Positions 1 through 38,565 of a stretch of DNA of 64,000 nt are shown piece by piece. Numbering within the stretch: the first letter of the stretch is position 1; every line of letters begins with the position of its first letter. The DNA is from Eledone cirrhosa. Its lineage: Eukaryota. The translations under genes and the position numbers were made by a program. The DNA is taken from the NCBI GenBank assembly GCA_964016885.1, contig OZ024740.1, forward strand, positions 145,638,001 to 145,702,000. Reading direction: 5' to 3'. A model generated the notes under the pieces. That model saw nothing but the letters and a program-made list of their open reading frames with translations, was not told the DNA's origin and ran no database searches.

Positions 1-250
1 TGTAACAACAACGAAACTAGTTCAATATTCCTTGTCTGGCTTTCTGGAGAATAGAGGAAAGGTGTTTCCTCAAAAACCAGTATGACTCTAAAAACCGGTT
101 TGTCTGTGTGTTTACATACAGAATAGCTGGACACTCACGGTAAAGTGACCAGTGAAAAACTTGGTACATCTACATATGTATACGTGTGTGTATTCATATG
201 CATACTAGTATTTCAGTATACATATGTGGATGTACATTTTTAACTTAATT
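1..250 (+). mobile_element. Diverged arm of the hammerhead-bearing foldback (Penelope-like pLTR) family, cut by the window start
   Basis: Colinear with 30683-30930. Carries the 3' half of an HHR (tgt-aaca-acaac GAAA ctag TT caatatt, 1-29) and ends at the same ttaacttaatt|TA junction. Confidence 0.8.
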
Positions 251-27093: not shown

Positions 27094-28175
27094 TCATCAT
27101 CATCATCACCGTTTTACGTCCGTTCTTCCCACGCTAGCATGGGTTAGACGGGTTGTCCTGTTGTGGGCAGTGTCTGGTCGGTCTGACCCATGCCTTGCTC
27201 ATACAGGAACTGATCTGGCTTGATTTCTACAGCTGGATGCCCTTCCTAACACCAACCTCATTTACAGTGAGTGCTGGGTGCTTTTTCGTGGCGCCTACAC
27301 GTCCACTTTACAGTGTGGGCTGGGGTGCTATTTTTGCCGTGGCGCCTACACGACCACCTTGCGGTGGGGGGGGGGGGGCATATTGTTTATATGCTTCAGC
27401 ATGTACCCATGGGAGGTCGGGTACCCTGTATTACTGCGTGACGCCAGAAGTCACGGTCGTGTGTCATTGACTTTGAGAGGTGTAGTTGGGTAAGGTCGGC
27501 CTTTTATCACCTCATCCCAAGTCATCTTGGGTCTCCCCCACTCCGCGGTTTTCCATCAACTTCTAGTGCTCTGCACCTTTTTATGCAGCTGTCATCCTTC
27601 ATACGCATCACATGTCCATACCAGCGTAACCGCCTCTCCTGCACGCAGCATTTGATTCCTCTTATGCTCAGTCTCTCTCTCAATTCCTTTATGCTTTGTC
27701 GTTCACGTATATTACTGTTACACATCCATCGGAGCATGCAGCTTCGTTTCTCTCTAATCTACGTAAGTCTTCCACCTTCAGCACCCAGGTCTCACTACCA
27801 TGCAACATCGCTGTTCGGATACACGCATCATACAGTCTGCCTTTCATTCTGAGGGAGAAGCCTTTTGCAGCTAGCAGTGGTAGTAGTTCCCCTAAACTTC
27901 TTCCATCCCGTTCTTACCCTAGTTATTGTACTTTCTGAGCACCCACCTCCGTTGCTAATTCGGTCACCTAGGTAGCAGAAGCTGTCTACTGTTTCTACAG
28001 GGCCCCTCCCAGAGATTGGTGAGGTACTTGTTTCCTGTGGCTGTTTGCTTGCTGTTTCAGCACAGCTGCTGCATGTGAATCCTACATTCTTAATTAAGCT
28101 TCCTGAGATCCCGCTACATCTCTTGTGTACCCATTGTTTGCATTTGGGGCAGAGAATGGAGTTCCTACCTACACC
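27094..28175 (-). mobile_element. RTE 3' fragment, near-identical to 42721-43795
   Basis: Same sequence apart from scattered single-base indels; TA flanks on both sides. Confidence 0.92.
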
Positions 28176-29485: not shown

Positions 29486-29943
29486 CCAAGACAATGTCAC
29501 TGTGACCGAGACCTTTGGCGGTACTCAGTAACAGAGAAGACCCGCCTTACCTAAATACATAGTAAAACCTACTACAGCCAGTAGGCATCTCTAACAAAAT
29601 ACACCCGTCCCACCACCACCACCCACACCACCCCCATTCTATGTAAAGTTATGTTGGTGCCGCGCCATCCAGGCCGAAACAAATGAGATCGTGTAGGTGT
29701 CACGACAAAAAACACACAGTCCATGCTGTAATGTGGCCGTATAGGCAACACGGTAAAAACCTCCCAGACCCACACTGTAAATGTGGTTGGTGTTAGGAAG
29801 GGCATCCAACTGTAGAAAACCTGCCAGACAGTCCCTATGCGAGCAAGACAATCACTCTTGCCTCAAGTGGGACTACACCCCGTCCAAACCCATGCAAGCG
29901 TGGAACACGGACGTTAAACGTTGATGATGATGATGATGATGAT
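29486..29943 (+). mobile_element. RTE 3' end (subfamily of 409-3346)
   Basis: Matches 2779-3346; (GAT)n tail. Confidence 0.9.
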
Positions 29944-30418
29944 ATAATATATATAATATATATATATATATAATATATATATATAATATATATATATAAT
30001 ATATATAATATATATAATATATATATATAATATATATAATATATAATATATATAATATATAATATATATATATATAATATATATAATATATATATAATAT
30101 ATATATAATATATATATAATATATATAATATATAATATATACTATAAATATATATAATATATATATATATAATATAATATATATATATAATATATAATAT
30201 AATTAAGTTAAAGTGTACATCTACATATGTATACGGAAGTATTAGTATGCATATAAATACACACATGTATACATATGTACATGTACTCAGCTTTTCACTA
30301 GACACTTTACAGTGAGTGTCAGCTAGTCTGTATGTAACCACACAGGCGGACCGGGTTTTAGAGTCATACGAGTTTTCAAGGAAACACATTTCCTCTATTC
30401 TCCAGAGGGCCAGACAGG

Positions 30419-30463
30419 AATATTGGACTAGTTTCGATGTTATTACATCTCATCAGCAATATT
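30419..30463 (-). ncRNA. Type I hammerhead ribozyme (left arm)
   Basis: Minus strand: aatattg CTGATGA gatgt aata acatc GAAA ctag TC caatatt. Confidence 0.9.
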
Positions 30464-30666
30464 TACCCATCTTCCGGCTTCTCTGGAGAATTGTAAAAGC
30501 ACATATCGTTATATGCTTTTTCTATGAAAATTAGTAGTGGGTAGACTAATTTGCAATAGAACGTGAGTCATTGTACGCACCGGTCTACCCACTACTAATT
30601 TTCATAGAAAAAGCATATAACGATATGTGCTTTTACAATTCTCACAGAGAAGCCGGAAGATGGGTA

Positions 30667-30712
30667 AATATTGCTGATGAGATGTAATAAACATCGAAAC
30701 TAGTCCAATATT
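30667..30712 (+). ncRNA. Type I hammerhead ribozyme (right arm)
   Basis: aatattg CTGATGA gatgt aataa acatc GAAA ctag TC caatatt; predicted cleavage after C30705. Confidence 0.9.
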
Positions 30713-31274
30713 CCTGTCTGGCCCTCTGGAGAATAGAGGAAATGTGTTTCCTTGAAAACTCGTATGACTCTAAAACCCGGTCCGCCTGTGTGGTTACATA
30801 CAGACTAGCTGACACTCACTGTAAAGTGTCTAGTGAAAAGCTGAGTACATGTACATATGTATACATGTGTGTATTTATATGCATACTAATACTTCCGTAT
30901 ACATATGTAGATGTACACTTTAACTTAATTGTTTAAGCGTCAGTCATACAAAAGTGAGTTAGAAGCGAAACGAAATTTAATTTCGTTTCGTTATTTGTTT
31001 TTATATATAATATATATATATATAATATAATATATATATAATATATATAATATATATATAATATATATAATATATATATAATATATATAATATATATATA
31101 ATATAATATATATATATAATATATATAATATATATATAATATATATTAATATATATATAATATATATAATATATATATAATATATATAATATATATATAA
31201 TATATATAATATATATATATATATATATAATATATATATATAATATATATAATATATATATATATATAATATAT

Positions 31275-31316
<42 letters not shown>

Positions 31317-32566
31317 TATATATATAATATATATAATATATATATATATAATATATAATATTTATAATATATATATATATATAATATATATTTATATATA
31401 TAATATAATATATATATAATATATATATAATATATATATATATATAATATATATATATATATATAATATATATATAATATATATAATATATATATATATA
31501 TAATATAATATATATATATATATATATATAATATATATATAATATATATAATATATATTTATATATAATATATATATAATATATATATATATATAATATA
31601 TATATAATATATATATAATATATATAATATATATATATATATAATACATATATAATATATATAATATATATATAATATATATAATATATATATATATATA
31701 ATATATATATATATATAATACATATATAATATATATAATATATATATAATATATATATATATATAATATATATATATATATAATATATATATAATATATA
31801 ATATATAATATAATAACATATATAATATATAATATATATATATATATATATTATATATATAATTATATATAATATATCATATATAATATATAATATATAT
31901 ATAATACATATATAATATATATAACTATATATATAATACATATATAATATATATAATATATATATAATACATATATAATATATATAATATATATATAATA
32001 CATATATAATATCTATAATATATATATAATACATATATAATATATATATATATATAATATATATAATATATAATATATATATAATCTAATATATATATAT
32101 ATATATATATTATAGATATATATATAATATATATATATTATATATATAATATATATAAATATATATAAATATATAATATATACTATATATATAAATATAT
32201 ATATAGAATATATATATATAATATAATATATATATAATATATATATATATATAAATATATATACTATATATAATATATATTATATATATATATATATATA
32301 AATATATATATATATAATATTTATATATATATATATAATATATATTATATATATATATTATATACTATATAATATTATATATATATATATATATATAATA
32401 ATATATATATAATATATATAATATATATATTATAATATATATATAATATAATATATATATATATTAATATAATATATATATATATAATATATATATATAA
32501 TATATATATATATAATATATATATATAATATATATATAATATAATATTAATATATATATATAATAT

Positions 32567-33497: not shown

Positions 33498-33516
33498 GTA
33501 TATATAATATATATAT

Positions 33517-33548
<32 letters not shown>

Positions 33549-33796
33549 ATATATATATATATAAATATATATAATTATATATATATAATATATATATATA
33601 ATATATATAATATATATATATATATATATAAATATTATATATATATATATATATTATATATATATATATAATATATATATATATAATATATATATATATA
33701 TATAATATATATATATAATAATATATATATAATATATATATATAATATATATAATATATATATAATATATAATATATATAATATATATTATAATAT

Positions 33797-33889
<93 letters not shown>

Positions 33890-33920
33890 ATATATATATA
33901 TAATATAATATATATATAAT

Positions 33921-34304
33921 CTCTCAAAGTCAATGACACACGACCGTGACTTCTGGCGTCACGCAGTAATACAGGGTACCCGACCTCCCATGGGTACATG
34001 CTGAAGCATATAGACAATATGCCCCCCCCCCCCCCACTGCAAGGTGGCCGTGGAGGTGCCACGCAAAAAAGCACCCAGCCCACACTGTAAAGTGGACGTG
34101 TAGGCGCCACGAAAAAGCACCCAGCACTCACTGTAAATGAGGTTGGTGTTAGGAAGGGCATCCAGCTGTAGAAATCAAGCCAGATCAGTTCCTGTATGAG
34201 CAAGGCATGGTCAGCCGACCAGACACTGCCCACAACAGGACAACCCGTCTAACCCATGCTAGCGTGGAAGAACGGACGTAAAACGGTGATGATGATGATG
34301 ATGA
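33921..34304 (+). mobile_element. RTE 3' end (same subfamily as 42721-45750, opposite strand)
   Basis: Reverse complement of 42721-43102; (GAT)n tail. Confidence 0.9.
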
Positions 34305-34346
34305 TATAATATATATATATATAATATATATATATAATATAATATA

Positions 34347-34384
<38 letters not shown>

Positions 34385-34480
34385 TAATATATTATATATA
34401 TTATATATATTATTATATAATATATATATATATATAATATATATATATATATAATATATATATAATATATATATATATAT

Positions 34481-34513
<33 letters not shown>

Positions 34514-34514
34514 A

Positions 34515-34545
<31 letters not shown>

Positions 34546-34566
34546 ATATATATAATATATATATAT

Positions 34567-34597
<31 letters not shown>

Positions 34598-34695
34598 ATA
34601 TATATAATATATATATATAATATATATATATATTTTATATATATAATTATATATATATATGTAATATATATATATATATAAATATATATATATAT

Positions 34696-35152
34696 CCAAG
34701 ACAATGTCACTGGACCGAGACCTTTGGCGGTACTCAGTAACAGAGAAGACCCGCCTTACCTAAATACATAGTAAAACCTACTACAGCCAGTAGGCATCTC
34801 TAACAAAATACACCCCGTCCCACCACCACCACCCACACCACCCCCATTCTATGTAAAGTTATGTTGGTGCCGCGCCATCCAGGCCGAAACAAATGAGATC
34901 GTGTAGGTGTCACGACAAAAAACACACAGTCCATGCTGTAATGTGGCCGTATAGGCAACACGGTAAAAACCTCCCAGACCCACACTGTAAATGTGGTTGG
35001 TGTTAGAAGGGCATCCAACTGTAGAAAACCTGCCAGACAGTCCTATGCGAGCAAGACAATCACTCTTGCCTCAAGTGGGGACTACCCCCGTCCCAAACCC
35101 ATGCAAGCGTGGAACACGGACGTTAAACGTTGATGATGATGATGATGATGAT
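34696..35152 (+). mobile_element. RTE 3' end, duplicate of 29486-29943
   Basis: Near-identical, with the same truncation point. Confidence 0.9.
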
Positions 35153-35630
35153 ATAATATATATAATATATATATATATATAAATATATTATATATAATAT
35201 ATATATATAATATATATAATATATATAATATATATATATAATATATATAATATATATATAATATATATAATATATATATATATAATATATATAATATATA
35301 TAATATATATATTAATATATATATATATATAATATATATAATATATAATATATATATAATATATATAATATATATATAATATATATAATATATATATAAT
35401 ATATATAATATAATTAAGTTAAAGTGTACATCTACATATGTAATACGGAAGTATTAGTATGCATATAAATACACACATGTATACATATGTACATGTACTC
35501 AGCTTTTCACTAGACACTTTACAGTGAGTGTCAGCTAGTCTGTATGTAACCACACAGGCGGACCGGGTTTTAGAGTCATACGAGTTTTCAAGGAAACACA
35601 TTTCCTCTATTCTCCAGAGGGCCAGACAGG

Positions 35631-35675
35631 AATATTGGACTAGTTTCGATGTTATTACATCTCATCAGCAATATT
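35631..35675 (-). ncRNA. Type I hammerhead ribozyme
   Basis: Identical to 30419-30463. Confidence 0.9.
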
Positions 35676-35879
35676 TACCCATCTTCCCGGCTTCTCTGGA
35701 GAATTGTAAAAGCACATATCGTTATATGCTTTTTCTATGAAAATTAGTAGTGGGTAGACTAATTTGCATAGAACGTGAGTCATTGTACGCACCGGTCTAC
35801 ACCACTACTAATTTTCATAGAAAAAAGCATATAACGATATGTGCTTTTACAATTCTCCAGAGAAGCCGGAAGATGGGTA

Positions 35880-35924
35880 AATATTGCTGATGAGATGTAA
35901 TAACATCGAAACTAGTCCAATATT
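35880..35924 (+). ncRNA. Type I hammerhead ribozyme
   Basis: aatattg CTGATGA gatgt aata acatc GAAA ctag TC caatatt. Confidence 0.9.
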
Positions 35925-36244
35925 CCTGTCTGGCCCTCTGGAGAATAGAGGAAATGTGTTTCCTTGAAAAACTCGTATGACTCTAAAACCCGGTCCGCCT
36001 GTGTGGTTACATACAGACTAGCTGACACTCACTGTAAAGTGTCTAGTGAAAAGCTGAGTACATGTACATATGTATACATGTGTGTATTTATATGCATACT
36101 AATACTTCCGTATACATATGTAGATGTACACTTTAACTTAATTGTTTAAGCGTCAGTCATACAAAAGTGAGTTAGAAGCGAAACGAAATTTAATTTCGTT
36201 TCGTTATTTGTTTTTATATATATATATATATTATATATATATAT

Positions 36245-36276
<32 letters not shown>

Positions 36277-36415
36277 TATATAATAATATATAATATATAT
36301 AATATATATAATATATATAATATATATAATATATATATAATATATATAATATATATATATAATATATATATTATATATATATATATATATAATATATAAT
36401 ATATATATATATAAT

Positions 36416-36500
<85 letters not shown>

Positions 36501-36515
36501 TAATATATATATAAT

Positions 36516-36561
<46 letters not shown>

Positions 36562-36599
36562 ATATATATATATAATATAATAATATAATATATATATAT

Positions 36600-36636
<37 letters not shown>

Positions 36637-36691
36637 ATATAATATATATAATTATATATATATATAATAATATATAATATATATATATAAT

Positions 36692-36723
<32 letters not shown>

Positions 36724-36767
36724 ATATATATATATATATAATATATATATATATATAATATATATAT

Positions 36768-36804
<37 letters not shown>

Positions 36805-36898
36805 AATACATATATAATATATATAATATATATATATATATATAATATTATATATATATAATATATATATATATATATAATACATATATAATATATAT

Positions 36899-36931
<33 letters not shown>

Positions 36932-37276
36932 ATATATATAATATAATATAATATATATATAATATATATATATATATAATACATATATAATATATATATA
37001 TATATATAATATATATATATATATATAATATATATATATCATATATAATATATATATATATATAATATATAATACATATATAATATATATAATATATATA
37101 TAATACATATATAATATATATAATATATATATAATACATATATAATATATATAATATATATATAATACATATATAATATAATATATATATATAATAATAC
37201 ATATATAATATATATATATAGATAATATATATATATATATATATATATAGATATATATATATACATATATATATAT

Positions 37277-37330
<54 letters not shown>

Positions 37331-37425
37331 TAATATATATATATATATATAATATAATATATTATATATATATATATATAATATATATATATATATAATA
37401 TATATAATATATATATATATATAAT

Positions 37426-37458
<33 letters not shown>

Positions 37459-37504
37459 TATAATATATATATAATATAATATATATATAATATAATATAT
37501 ATAT

Positions 37505-37535
<31 letters not shown>

Positions 37536-37567
37536 ATATATAATATATATATATAATATATATATAT

Positions 37568-37635
<68 letters not shown>

Positions 37636-37731
37636 TATATAATATATATATATATAATATAATAATATATATATAAATATAATATATATAATATATATAT
37701 ATATAATATATATATAATATATATATATAAT

Positions 37732-37774
<43 letters not shown>

Positions 37775-37820
37775 ATATATAATATATAATATATATATAT
37801 AATATATATATATAATATAT

Positions 37821-37863
<43 letters not shown>

Positions 37864-37880
37864 ATATATATATATATATT

Positions 37881-37911
<31 letters not shown>

Positions 37912-37928
37912 TATATATAATATATTAT

Positions 37929-38028
<100 letters not shown>

Positions 38029-38056
38029 TATATATAATATATATATATATAATATA

Positions 38057-38115
<59 letters not shown>

Positions 38116-38122
38116 TATATAT

Positions 38123-38168
<46 letters not shown>

Positions 38169-38365
38169 ATATATATATATAATATATATATATATATATA
38201 GGAACGATCGACTTTCGTCAAATCGGACCGAGGGAACAATGTTTCCGTTGGTCTTTCCAATTGCTAATACTATCTATCGGTCGCAACTCCAGGTAGAAGG
38301 AGCAACGTGAAATAAAGTGTCTTGCTCAAGGACAATAACGCATCGCTCTGGTCCAGGAATCGATA

Positions 38366-38565
38366 NNNNNNNNNNNNNNNNNNNNNNNNNNNNNNNNNNN
38401 NNNNNNNNNNNNNNNNNNNNNNNNNNNNNNNNNNNNNNNNNNNNNNNNNNNNNNNNNNNNNNNNNNNNNNNNNNNNNNNNNNNNNNNNNNNNNNNNNNNN
38501 NNNNNNNNNNNNNNNNNNNNNNNNNNNNNNNNNNNNNNNNNNNNNNNNNNNNNNNNNNNNNNNNN
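38366..38565. other. Assembly gap (200 N)
   Basis: Run of n. Confidence 1.

Follow-up and report, generated by a model that had tools for sequence, protein, structure and literature searches.

The foldback at 30201-31004 of the window (the whole 64,000-nt stretch of DNA that we analysed) is best explained, with a probability of about 70%, as a single, non-propagating insertion of a non-LTR retrozyme that was mobilised in trans through twin priming by a Penelope-like element (PLE). Its foldback shape is probably the scar of a PLE-type enzyme that copied RNA from both ends of a break. The element is a non-LTR retrozyme with hundreds of copies in the genome, and the window copy is an ordinary, dead one. 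Since the retrozyme class is already known and the locus itself is inert, the point of interest is the footprint of the family, which connects retrozymes with the PLE machinery and opens PLE integration to testing. This footprint bears on which enzyme moves animal retrozymes, and on why insertions of PLEs carry an inversion and have their tail on one side.

The preliminary description of this DNA had reported near-perfect inverted arms around a 36-bp spacer, embedded in (TA)n, with a tail on the right arm only. All of this was confirmed: the paired arms at 30201-30546 (346 bp) and 30583-30930 (348 bp) have the same sequence save for two added bases in the right arm, and (TA)n lies on either side. 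The foldback is not the unit: each arm derives from part of a non-coding monomer of 469 nt. What looked like a spacer belongs to the left arm, as its surplus 5' part, and the tail is the following stretch of the circularly permuted monomer. The features are as follows, with monomer position 1 being the first base past the ribozyme cut.

23-250, plus strand: short end of a separate two-armed insertion (L031), from a subfamily with 88-89% identity to the reference monomer
29942-30200, no strand: left (TA)n target array
30201-30584, minus strand: short-end arm, monomer 312-469, then 1-225
30412-30472, minus strand: second copy of the hammerhead, CTGATGA at 30456-30450, C17 at 30426
30547-30582, minus strand: unpaired centre of 36 nt, monomer 312-348, in the left arm only
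30583-31004, plus strand: long-end arm, monomer 349-469, then 1-299
30658-30719, plus strand: type I hammerhead with extended stem I, core 30674-30705, predicted cut after C30705
30845-30916, plus strand: long hairpin with imperfect pairing, immediately 5' of the short end, monomer 140-211
30931-31004, plus strand: tail of 74 nt between the short and long ends, monomer 226-299
30961-30992, plus strand: 13-bp hairpin within the tail
31005-31800, no strand: right (TA)n target array, the beginning of a longer array
35412-36217, no strand: second copy with exactly the same junction, in a local duplication of ~5.2 kb

The two arms overlap by 2 nt at 30583-30584. Neither is a full unit, and monomer 300-311 is missing from the locus entirely. 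Since the right arm's two added bases are found neither in the reference monomer nor in the duplicate at 35412, they may be consensus errors. The long imperfect hairpin has a mirror copy at 30215-30286, is kept in the related family B, and is a candidate enzyme-binding site. The L031 insertion runs on upstream of the window.

A duplication of ~5.2 kb (~33500-38365) covers the foldback together with the repeats on its flanks. It carries scattered single-base indels, adjoins a 200-N assembly gap at 38366-38565, and is probably false or very recent. We rejected the copy at 35412-36217 as an independent insertion because the duplication takes in its flanks and abuts the gap, and both copies are therefore counted once. 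Other dispersed repeats, which end in (GAT)n or begin with (CAT)n, are nested in the same TA arrays (window 29490-29940, 27100-28170 and 33500-34900).

Each strand of the foldback carries one type I hammerhead ribozyme, as had been described. On the plus strand, CTGATGA (30674-30680) and GAAA (30696-30699) are followed by ACTAGT, and C17 falls at 30705, in agreement with the cut that had been predicted there. Stem II has 5 bp, stem I has 7 bp and can be lengthened beyond a bulge, and stem III consists of one base pair and a palindromic loop. The motif is not a chance occurrence, since its 31-nt core has 1,463 exact matches in the genome compared to 0 for the reversed control; conservation of the core among genomic copies, proposed earlier as a test, is thus borne out. 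In the Rfam profile search proposed alongside it, no match in the window reached the gathering score. The best relevant weak match was to Hammerhead_HH9, on both strands, at 31.8 and 26.2 bits where gathering requires 52. When the ribozymes of families A and B were compared, 7/20 pairs were changed on both sides with the core fixed, in a set of 8 sequences whose relatedness inflates the control for this count.

Stem III of one pair and a palindromic loop is of a type that cleaves well only as a dimer (PMC4209133; PMC7229834), and this likeness supports the earlier suggestion that the minimal stem III would need a dimer. In our calculations, the isolated stem III palindrome pairs at -4.8 kcal/mol, and the minimum-energy fold of two cofolded ribozymes does not contain the stem III dimer, which we take from the literature. 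The window locus has no tandem pair of ribozymes on one strand. With one ribozyme per strand and monomer 300-311 missing, it cannot make a circle, and it can give neither a cis dimer nor a circle. At least two ribozymes lie on one strand in 25/42 two-armed loci of the family, and those loci could supply a circle.

Our search of the 3.0-Gb genome returned 546 candidate places, of which 38 were scored, and the matches were spaced 469 bp apart, which is the tandem period. Insertions are arrays of 0.1–15 units. The longest open frame in the monomer is 84 codons, and there is no RT or GIY-YIG ORF. The family thus displays the sequence features by which retrozymes are recognised, namely a short non-coding tandem monomer with a type I hammerhead in every unit, dispersed copies, target duplications of >4 bp, and no LTR. 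Three related non-coding families were found, with 8,640 (B), 1,687 (C), and 234 (D) motif matches, C and D being older. Families A and B are about 65% alike, and B keeps the element anatomy, with long and short ends at all three young two-armed loci that have both ends in view.

The B/C/D families form a sister lineage with units of ~440-500 nt, (TA)n inside the long hairpin and a U-U at the base of stem II; this lineage has >10,000 ribozyme motif matches overall and the same two-ended insertion (L117:7571-9901, L120-L193). Separately, a satellite-like array of >28 kb and about 60 units, ~96% identical to the reference monomer, starts at a normal short end (L084-L086, G000:C1:95.62-95.65 Mb). 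This array is a retrozyme insertion that grew into satellite DNA.

Non-LTR retrozymes have been described in metazoans (Cervera & de la Peña 2020, PMC7229834; Li, Clavereau & Pollet, preprint 10.64898/2026.07.22.740005). As in those, the element is a low-GC, non-coding tandem monomer with one type I hammerhead per unit, is both dispersed and in satellite-like arrays, and coexists with PLEs. Its stem III, one pair and a palindromic tetraloop, is like that of the axolotl Amex1 ribozyme. At 469 nt, the monomer lies above the range of 170-400 nt in PMC7229834 and within that of 51-972 in 10.64898/2026.07.22.740005. On the other hand, the accessible parts of these two sources do not describe head-to-head insertions with two arms, long and short ends at fixed positions, or (TA)n as a target, and we found no pLTR homology here in the PLE loci examined, compared to 21/57 frog families in the preprint. 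Retrozymes accumulate as circular RNA, a form that the element here may also take, with read-through of the cut site (below) as indirect support. Across the accessible text of PMC7229834, PMC7761336, 10.64898/2026.07.22.740005, PMC11722881, and PMC8490949, neither two-armed retrozyme insertions nor a strict rule of one long and one short end appears; subscription journals, Repbase entries, and supplements may hold cases.

We mapped 66 loci, comprising 32 of the best matches, 33 of 35 taken in positional order along one chromosome, and 1 window neighbour. Excluded from all counts were L062 (a duplicate of L061), L002 (a local duplicate), and the >28-kb array. Two-armed loci made up 42/66, and all were head-to-head, pointing outward from the centre. 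Two canonical ends, a long one at 297-301 (~299) and a short one at 224-231 (~225/230), were present at 36 loci, and each of these 36 combined one long with one short end (binomial p 1.5e-11, where independent choice expects half). The position-ordered subset gave the same result, with long and short ends in 18/18 (p 3.8e-6). The second end was non-canonical at 6 two-armed loci, while 24 loci were apparently one-armed and ended long or short, several of them hiding arms of 8-45 nt. TA runs were found on both flanks of 28/42 two-armed loci, and direct repeats of 9-16 nt, end microhomology included, were found at four non-TA targets (L039, L059, L078, and L083). The inverted arm that lacks the tail and the targeting of (TA)n, both noted before at the one locus, are supported by these loci. 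An inverted 5'-truncated arm, a one-sided tail, and a microsatellite target together make up the insertion signature of PLEs.

The same counts bear on whether the inversion could be a foldback-read or assembly artefact, as might be suspected of a locus that is surrounded by kilobases of (TA)n, has a duplicate next to an assembly gap, and shows read-error-like indels. However, the palindrome ends at the family-wide fixed end, its centre is asymmetric and its tail one-sided, and the same anatomy recurs at 36 loci, in several subfamilies, and with target duplications at some loci. An artefact thus has a very small chance, and on these genome-internal grounds (fixed ends, a non-palindromic centre, target duplications, and subfamilies) the window inversion appears to be real.

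The preliminary description had further proposed that the foldback may work as a switch, its RNA either cleaving itself or folding into dsRNA that would feed siRNA or ADAR pathways. A 346-bp near-perfect duplex would indeed form on read-through (MFE -659 kcal/mol), and small RNAs arise from rotifer PLE copies (PMC3846280). However, the ribozyme stems, with a predicted pairing probability of 0.86 in a lone arm and 0.98 in a circle, drop to <1e-11 in the foldback transcript, and likewise in the nascent transcript just past stem I. Forcing the stems costs 66 kcal/mol, a gap at which the two conformations are not of comparable stability, and the ribozyme fold is never competitive in the foldback. 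With 42/66 loci two-armed and junctions evenly spread over the monomer, the foldback is a routine insertion product, and the random junction positions and arm lengths across loci argue against design. The window copy also matches the youngest subfamily, and so the locus gives no sign of selection. The switch is thus unsupported, and we regard it as very improbable. If read through, the window foldback could be a passive source of dsRNA, and the genome's hundreds of near-perfect hairpins could feed small-RNA or editing pathways.

The inner structure of the arms is informative about the template. Nine loci whose junctions were mis-called through internal hairpins or nested copies were left out of the junction and 5'-end analyses, and L040, L041, and L049 were left out of the allele-sharing and arm-against-arm comparisons. 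The 95 arms had a median length of 673 nt and a maximum of 6,907, and their 5' ends were uniform over the monomer (KS p 0.42). The ribozyme cut site was crossed 170 times with 0 ends at positions 1-5 (upper 95% bound on the stop rate, 1.7%), although the loci were chosen by full-length matches or by an intact ribozyme core, which makes arms running across the cut more likely to be included. At the centre junctions (n=38), the cDNA ends overlapped by 1-6 nt in 24, were blunt in 2, and had an insert in 12. Arms of the same locus were concordant at 122/123 subfamily alleles (18/39 loci; permuted mean 0.10, maximum 0.30, from a permutation that mixes subfamily ages), and 6/39 loci had locus-private variants common to both arms. 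This sharing could also reflect one dominant source locus or later conversion. While 37 private variants occur in all units of their locus, 23 variants (18 private, 5 shared) are confined to some units. At the outer ends, 228A was found in 10/23 terminal units compared to 0/199 internal units, and position 296 was altered in 6/56 terminal and 1/152 internal units. These target-like mismatches fit a target primer that imperfectly overlaps the RNA; creep of the TA array could mimic them.

We propose that such insertions arise in five steps. A tandem array would be transcribed, neighbouring hammerheads would pair via the palindromic stem III and cut, and a host ligase would close the 469-nt circle, a step that we infer from other retrozymes. 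The RT/GIY-YIG protein of a PLE, probably as a dimer, would then bind the RNA near the long hairpin and tail and make a staggered break in (TA)n. From there, both target 3' ends would prime cDNA inside the RNA, at the two positions (~299 and ~225-230) where the arms are seen to end, presumably through a few bases of imperfect pairing. Each cDNA would run past the ribozyme site and on round the monomer, to a length that varies at random; the read-through indicates an uncut template, which may be a circle or a long multimer. Finally, the cDNA ends would be joined, via the 1-6 nt of microhomology or the short inserts observed, into the head-to-head palindrome with a one-sided tail and a target duplication of ~9-16 bp that the loci display. 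The window copy stopped short of one unit in both arms, which left a foldback whose strands each carry one silent ribozyme. In this scheme, we infer the enzyme, the single template, and the circle, whereas the fixed ends, the rule of one each, the cut-site read-through, the shared alleles, and the duplications are direct observations at the mapped loci.

A different origin for the second arm would be snap-back or self-priming, in which either the first cDNA or an antisense template is copied to make it. This was put forward for palindromic junctions in rotifer Penelope elements (PMC3846280); it accounts for the allele sharing, and 3/33 loci (L019, L022, and L082) are near-perfect hairpins. At 8/33 loci, the window included, each arm holds sequence missing from the other, so neither arm was copied from the other, and for the window copy and these 7 others snap-back is excluded. 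Of the other 25 loci, 22 would require loops of 20-426 nt, and the second arm's other fixed end with its target-like mismatches would be left unexplained. As a general account, snap-back is therefore quite improbable.

Our preferred reading, PLE twin priming, could also have operated on a long, uncleaved linear array transcript, making the ribozyme dispensable for insertion. Uncleaved RNA is the dominant substrate in vitro and ribozyme mutants still insert (PMC11167929), cleavage was seen for 1/9 frog dimers (10.64898/2026.07.22.740005), and an array of >28 kb exists. Moreover, a single monomer circle would not be expected to yield the variants that only some units of a locus carry; these count against our best explanation and need later exchange, dimer circles, or multimer templates. 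On the other hand, the ribozyme has retained its core and stems, with compensatory changes between families that are about 65% alike, and the 5' ends do not pile up anywhere on the monomer. The 37 private variants in every unit of their locus also speak against a linear multimer, as does the finding that most loci have <3 units per arm, yet one young arm has 14.7. Taken together, a linear template seems unlikely, although it deserves serious consideration. Inside the arrays of L032 and L070, unit variants alternate, which suggests dimer templates or later unequal exchange.

Arrays might otherwise have been assembled by end-to-end template jumps between cleaved linear monomers, since template jumping by RT is known for R2 elements. 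We give this reading only a slight chance, because the unit junction at the cut site is precise in its commonest form (228 motif matches, with loci overlapping), none of the 170 crossings stops at positions 1-5, and private variants are common to the units. The proposed twin priming has a parallel in L1, where both target ends prime on one RNA and the cDNAs join by microhomology to give an inversion. Two target-end primers, microhomology joining, and inversion are common to both. Unlike in L1, priming on both sides begins at fixed internal sites of the RNA and the two arms have sequence in common, so that a circular or multimeric template is needed.

PLEs have already been proposed as mobilisers of retrozymes (PMC7229834; PMC7761336), and in frogs co-occurrence and pLTR homology support PLE mobilisation (2026 preprint, 10.64898/2026.07.22.740005). 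EN+ PLEs form partial tandems with an inverted 5'-truncated copy and a (TA)n bias (Craig et al. 2021, PMC8557442), their tail of 30-40 bp is often at one end only (PMC8557442), and PLE target duplications are 8-10 bp (Arkhipova et al. 2013, PMC3846280). The retrozyme insertions share with EN+ PLEs of Neptune-type insertion structure the partial tandems, the inverted 5'-truncated copy, the one-sided tail, the microsatellite target, a hammerhead near the end, and similar duplications (9-16 here compared to 8-10 bp published). They differ in that the retrozyme has no ORF, both arms can carry many full units, and the tail of 69-74 nt is longer than both the published 30-40 bp and the ~55-65 nt of the candidate partner described below.

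The closest biochemical comparison is the anole Poseidon element PAc, which has two internal RT starts bounding the tail, and whose protein, a predicted dimer, cleaves both strands and extends them (Frangieh et al. 2024, PMC11167929). As in PAc, the start sites here lie beside a stem-loop, downstream of the hammerhead, and the target is AT-rich. In vitro, however, the PAc strands are alike in start site, priming proceeds without homology, and uncleaved linear RNA is the main substrate (PMC11167929), whereas here each arm has one site, in 36/36 loci, and its ends have short imperfect target pairing. The in vitro results on start site, homology, and substrate count against our best explanation.

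A genome scan for GIY-YIG domains gave 10,597 candidates, of which 150 were scored, and the 33 PLE loci that we examined from these fell into four related families and one distant family. The four have RT, a cysteine-rich linker, and GIY-YIG at the C terminus, and judged by the linker as described in PMC8557442 they appear to be Neptune-type. The best candidate partner, by activity and anatomy, is the young autonomous family L110/L213, which has a 4,135-bp unit with RT and GIY-YIG, copies 98-100% alike, a hammerhead with palindromic stem III, and foldbacks in (TA)n with one long and one short end (L213, L214, L118, and L211). It has no sequence in common with the retrozyme beyond (TA)-like matches. 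Similarly, nothing above shuffles except (TA)-like matches was found between the monomer and the four C-terminal-EN families (33 loci); one monomer-PLE match scored 39 compared to 28±3 in shuffles. The search for copies linked to an RT/GIY-YIG ORF, suggested at the outset, found none in the loci viewed. This was equally so for the B, C, and D relatives, and four looser ribozyme patterns run genome-wide yielded further non-coding relatives only, with no ORF-linked form in the loci viewed. That no autonomous partner with common sequence occurs among the PLE loci examined counts against our best explanation. The earlier view of the element as a non-coding PLE derivative or retrozyme thus survives in the form of a PLE-dependent retrozyme, while descent of its sequence from a PLE finds no support in the PLE ends examined.

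Two of these PLE copies illustrate the anatomy. The hammerhead-bearing PLE at L213:868-8657 lies in a foldback with one long and one short end and has tandem units 99.98% alike; this copy lacks 73 nt present in L215 and L216, and its frame is split. The PLE at L109:2275-5562 has an intact frame of 1,096 codons (RT and GIY-YIG), an inverted short-ended copy upstream, a 40-nt tail, and copies 98-99% alike, with the same anatomy as the L110/L213 family; our hammerhead pattern search found none in L109, nor in the L107 and L115 families. At L058:3420-5888, a retrozyme arm abuts 2.4 kb of a PLE copy that ends at its own short end. It looked like a retrozyme-PLE chimera, a reading that we set aside: divergence from the closest siblings is 2.2-2.4% for the PLE part, whereas 1,268 nt of retrozyme contain 3 changes, each in a single unit, making the PLE part several times older and probably just an older neighbour. 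Since the parts differ in age, L058 is not counted as evidence.

A more specific version of PLE twin priming is tentative, and we hold it at somewhat less than even odds. Here, a PLE protein dimer would load one retrozyme circle at two fixed sites ~70 nt apart and reverse-transcribe it, with both cut ends extended at once and each active site rolling round the circle. If true, this would explain the inverted arm, one-sided tail, and partial tandems of PLEs generally, and an old, sequence-unrelated lineage of RNA circles would be parasitising PLEs by structure alone. The family offers a countable rule, namely one long and one short end per insertion, arms of one haplotype, and no stop at the ribozyme cut, and the 469-nt circle with a co-active PLE of the same genome would give the in vitro PLE assay that already exists a compact substrate.

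Two further observations concern single loci and other ribozymes. In one one-armed insertion (L063:4111-4231), the 5' flank consists of host DNA duplicated in inverted orientation about a TA run. Dispersed type I hammerhead-like motifs of at least three other kinds, which differ in their stem III sequences, occur in the loci viewed (L003:493, L004:3335, L009:558, L058:950 and 1481, L079:5925, L112:533, L115:603, L116:8486, and L119:5462).
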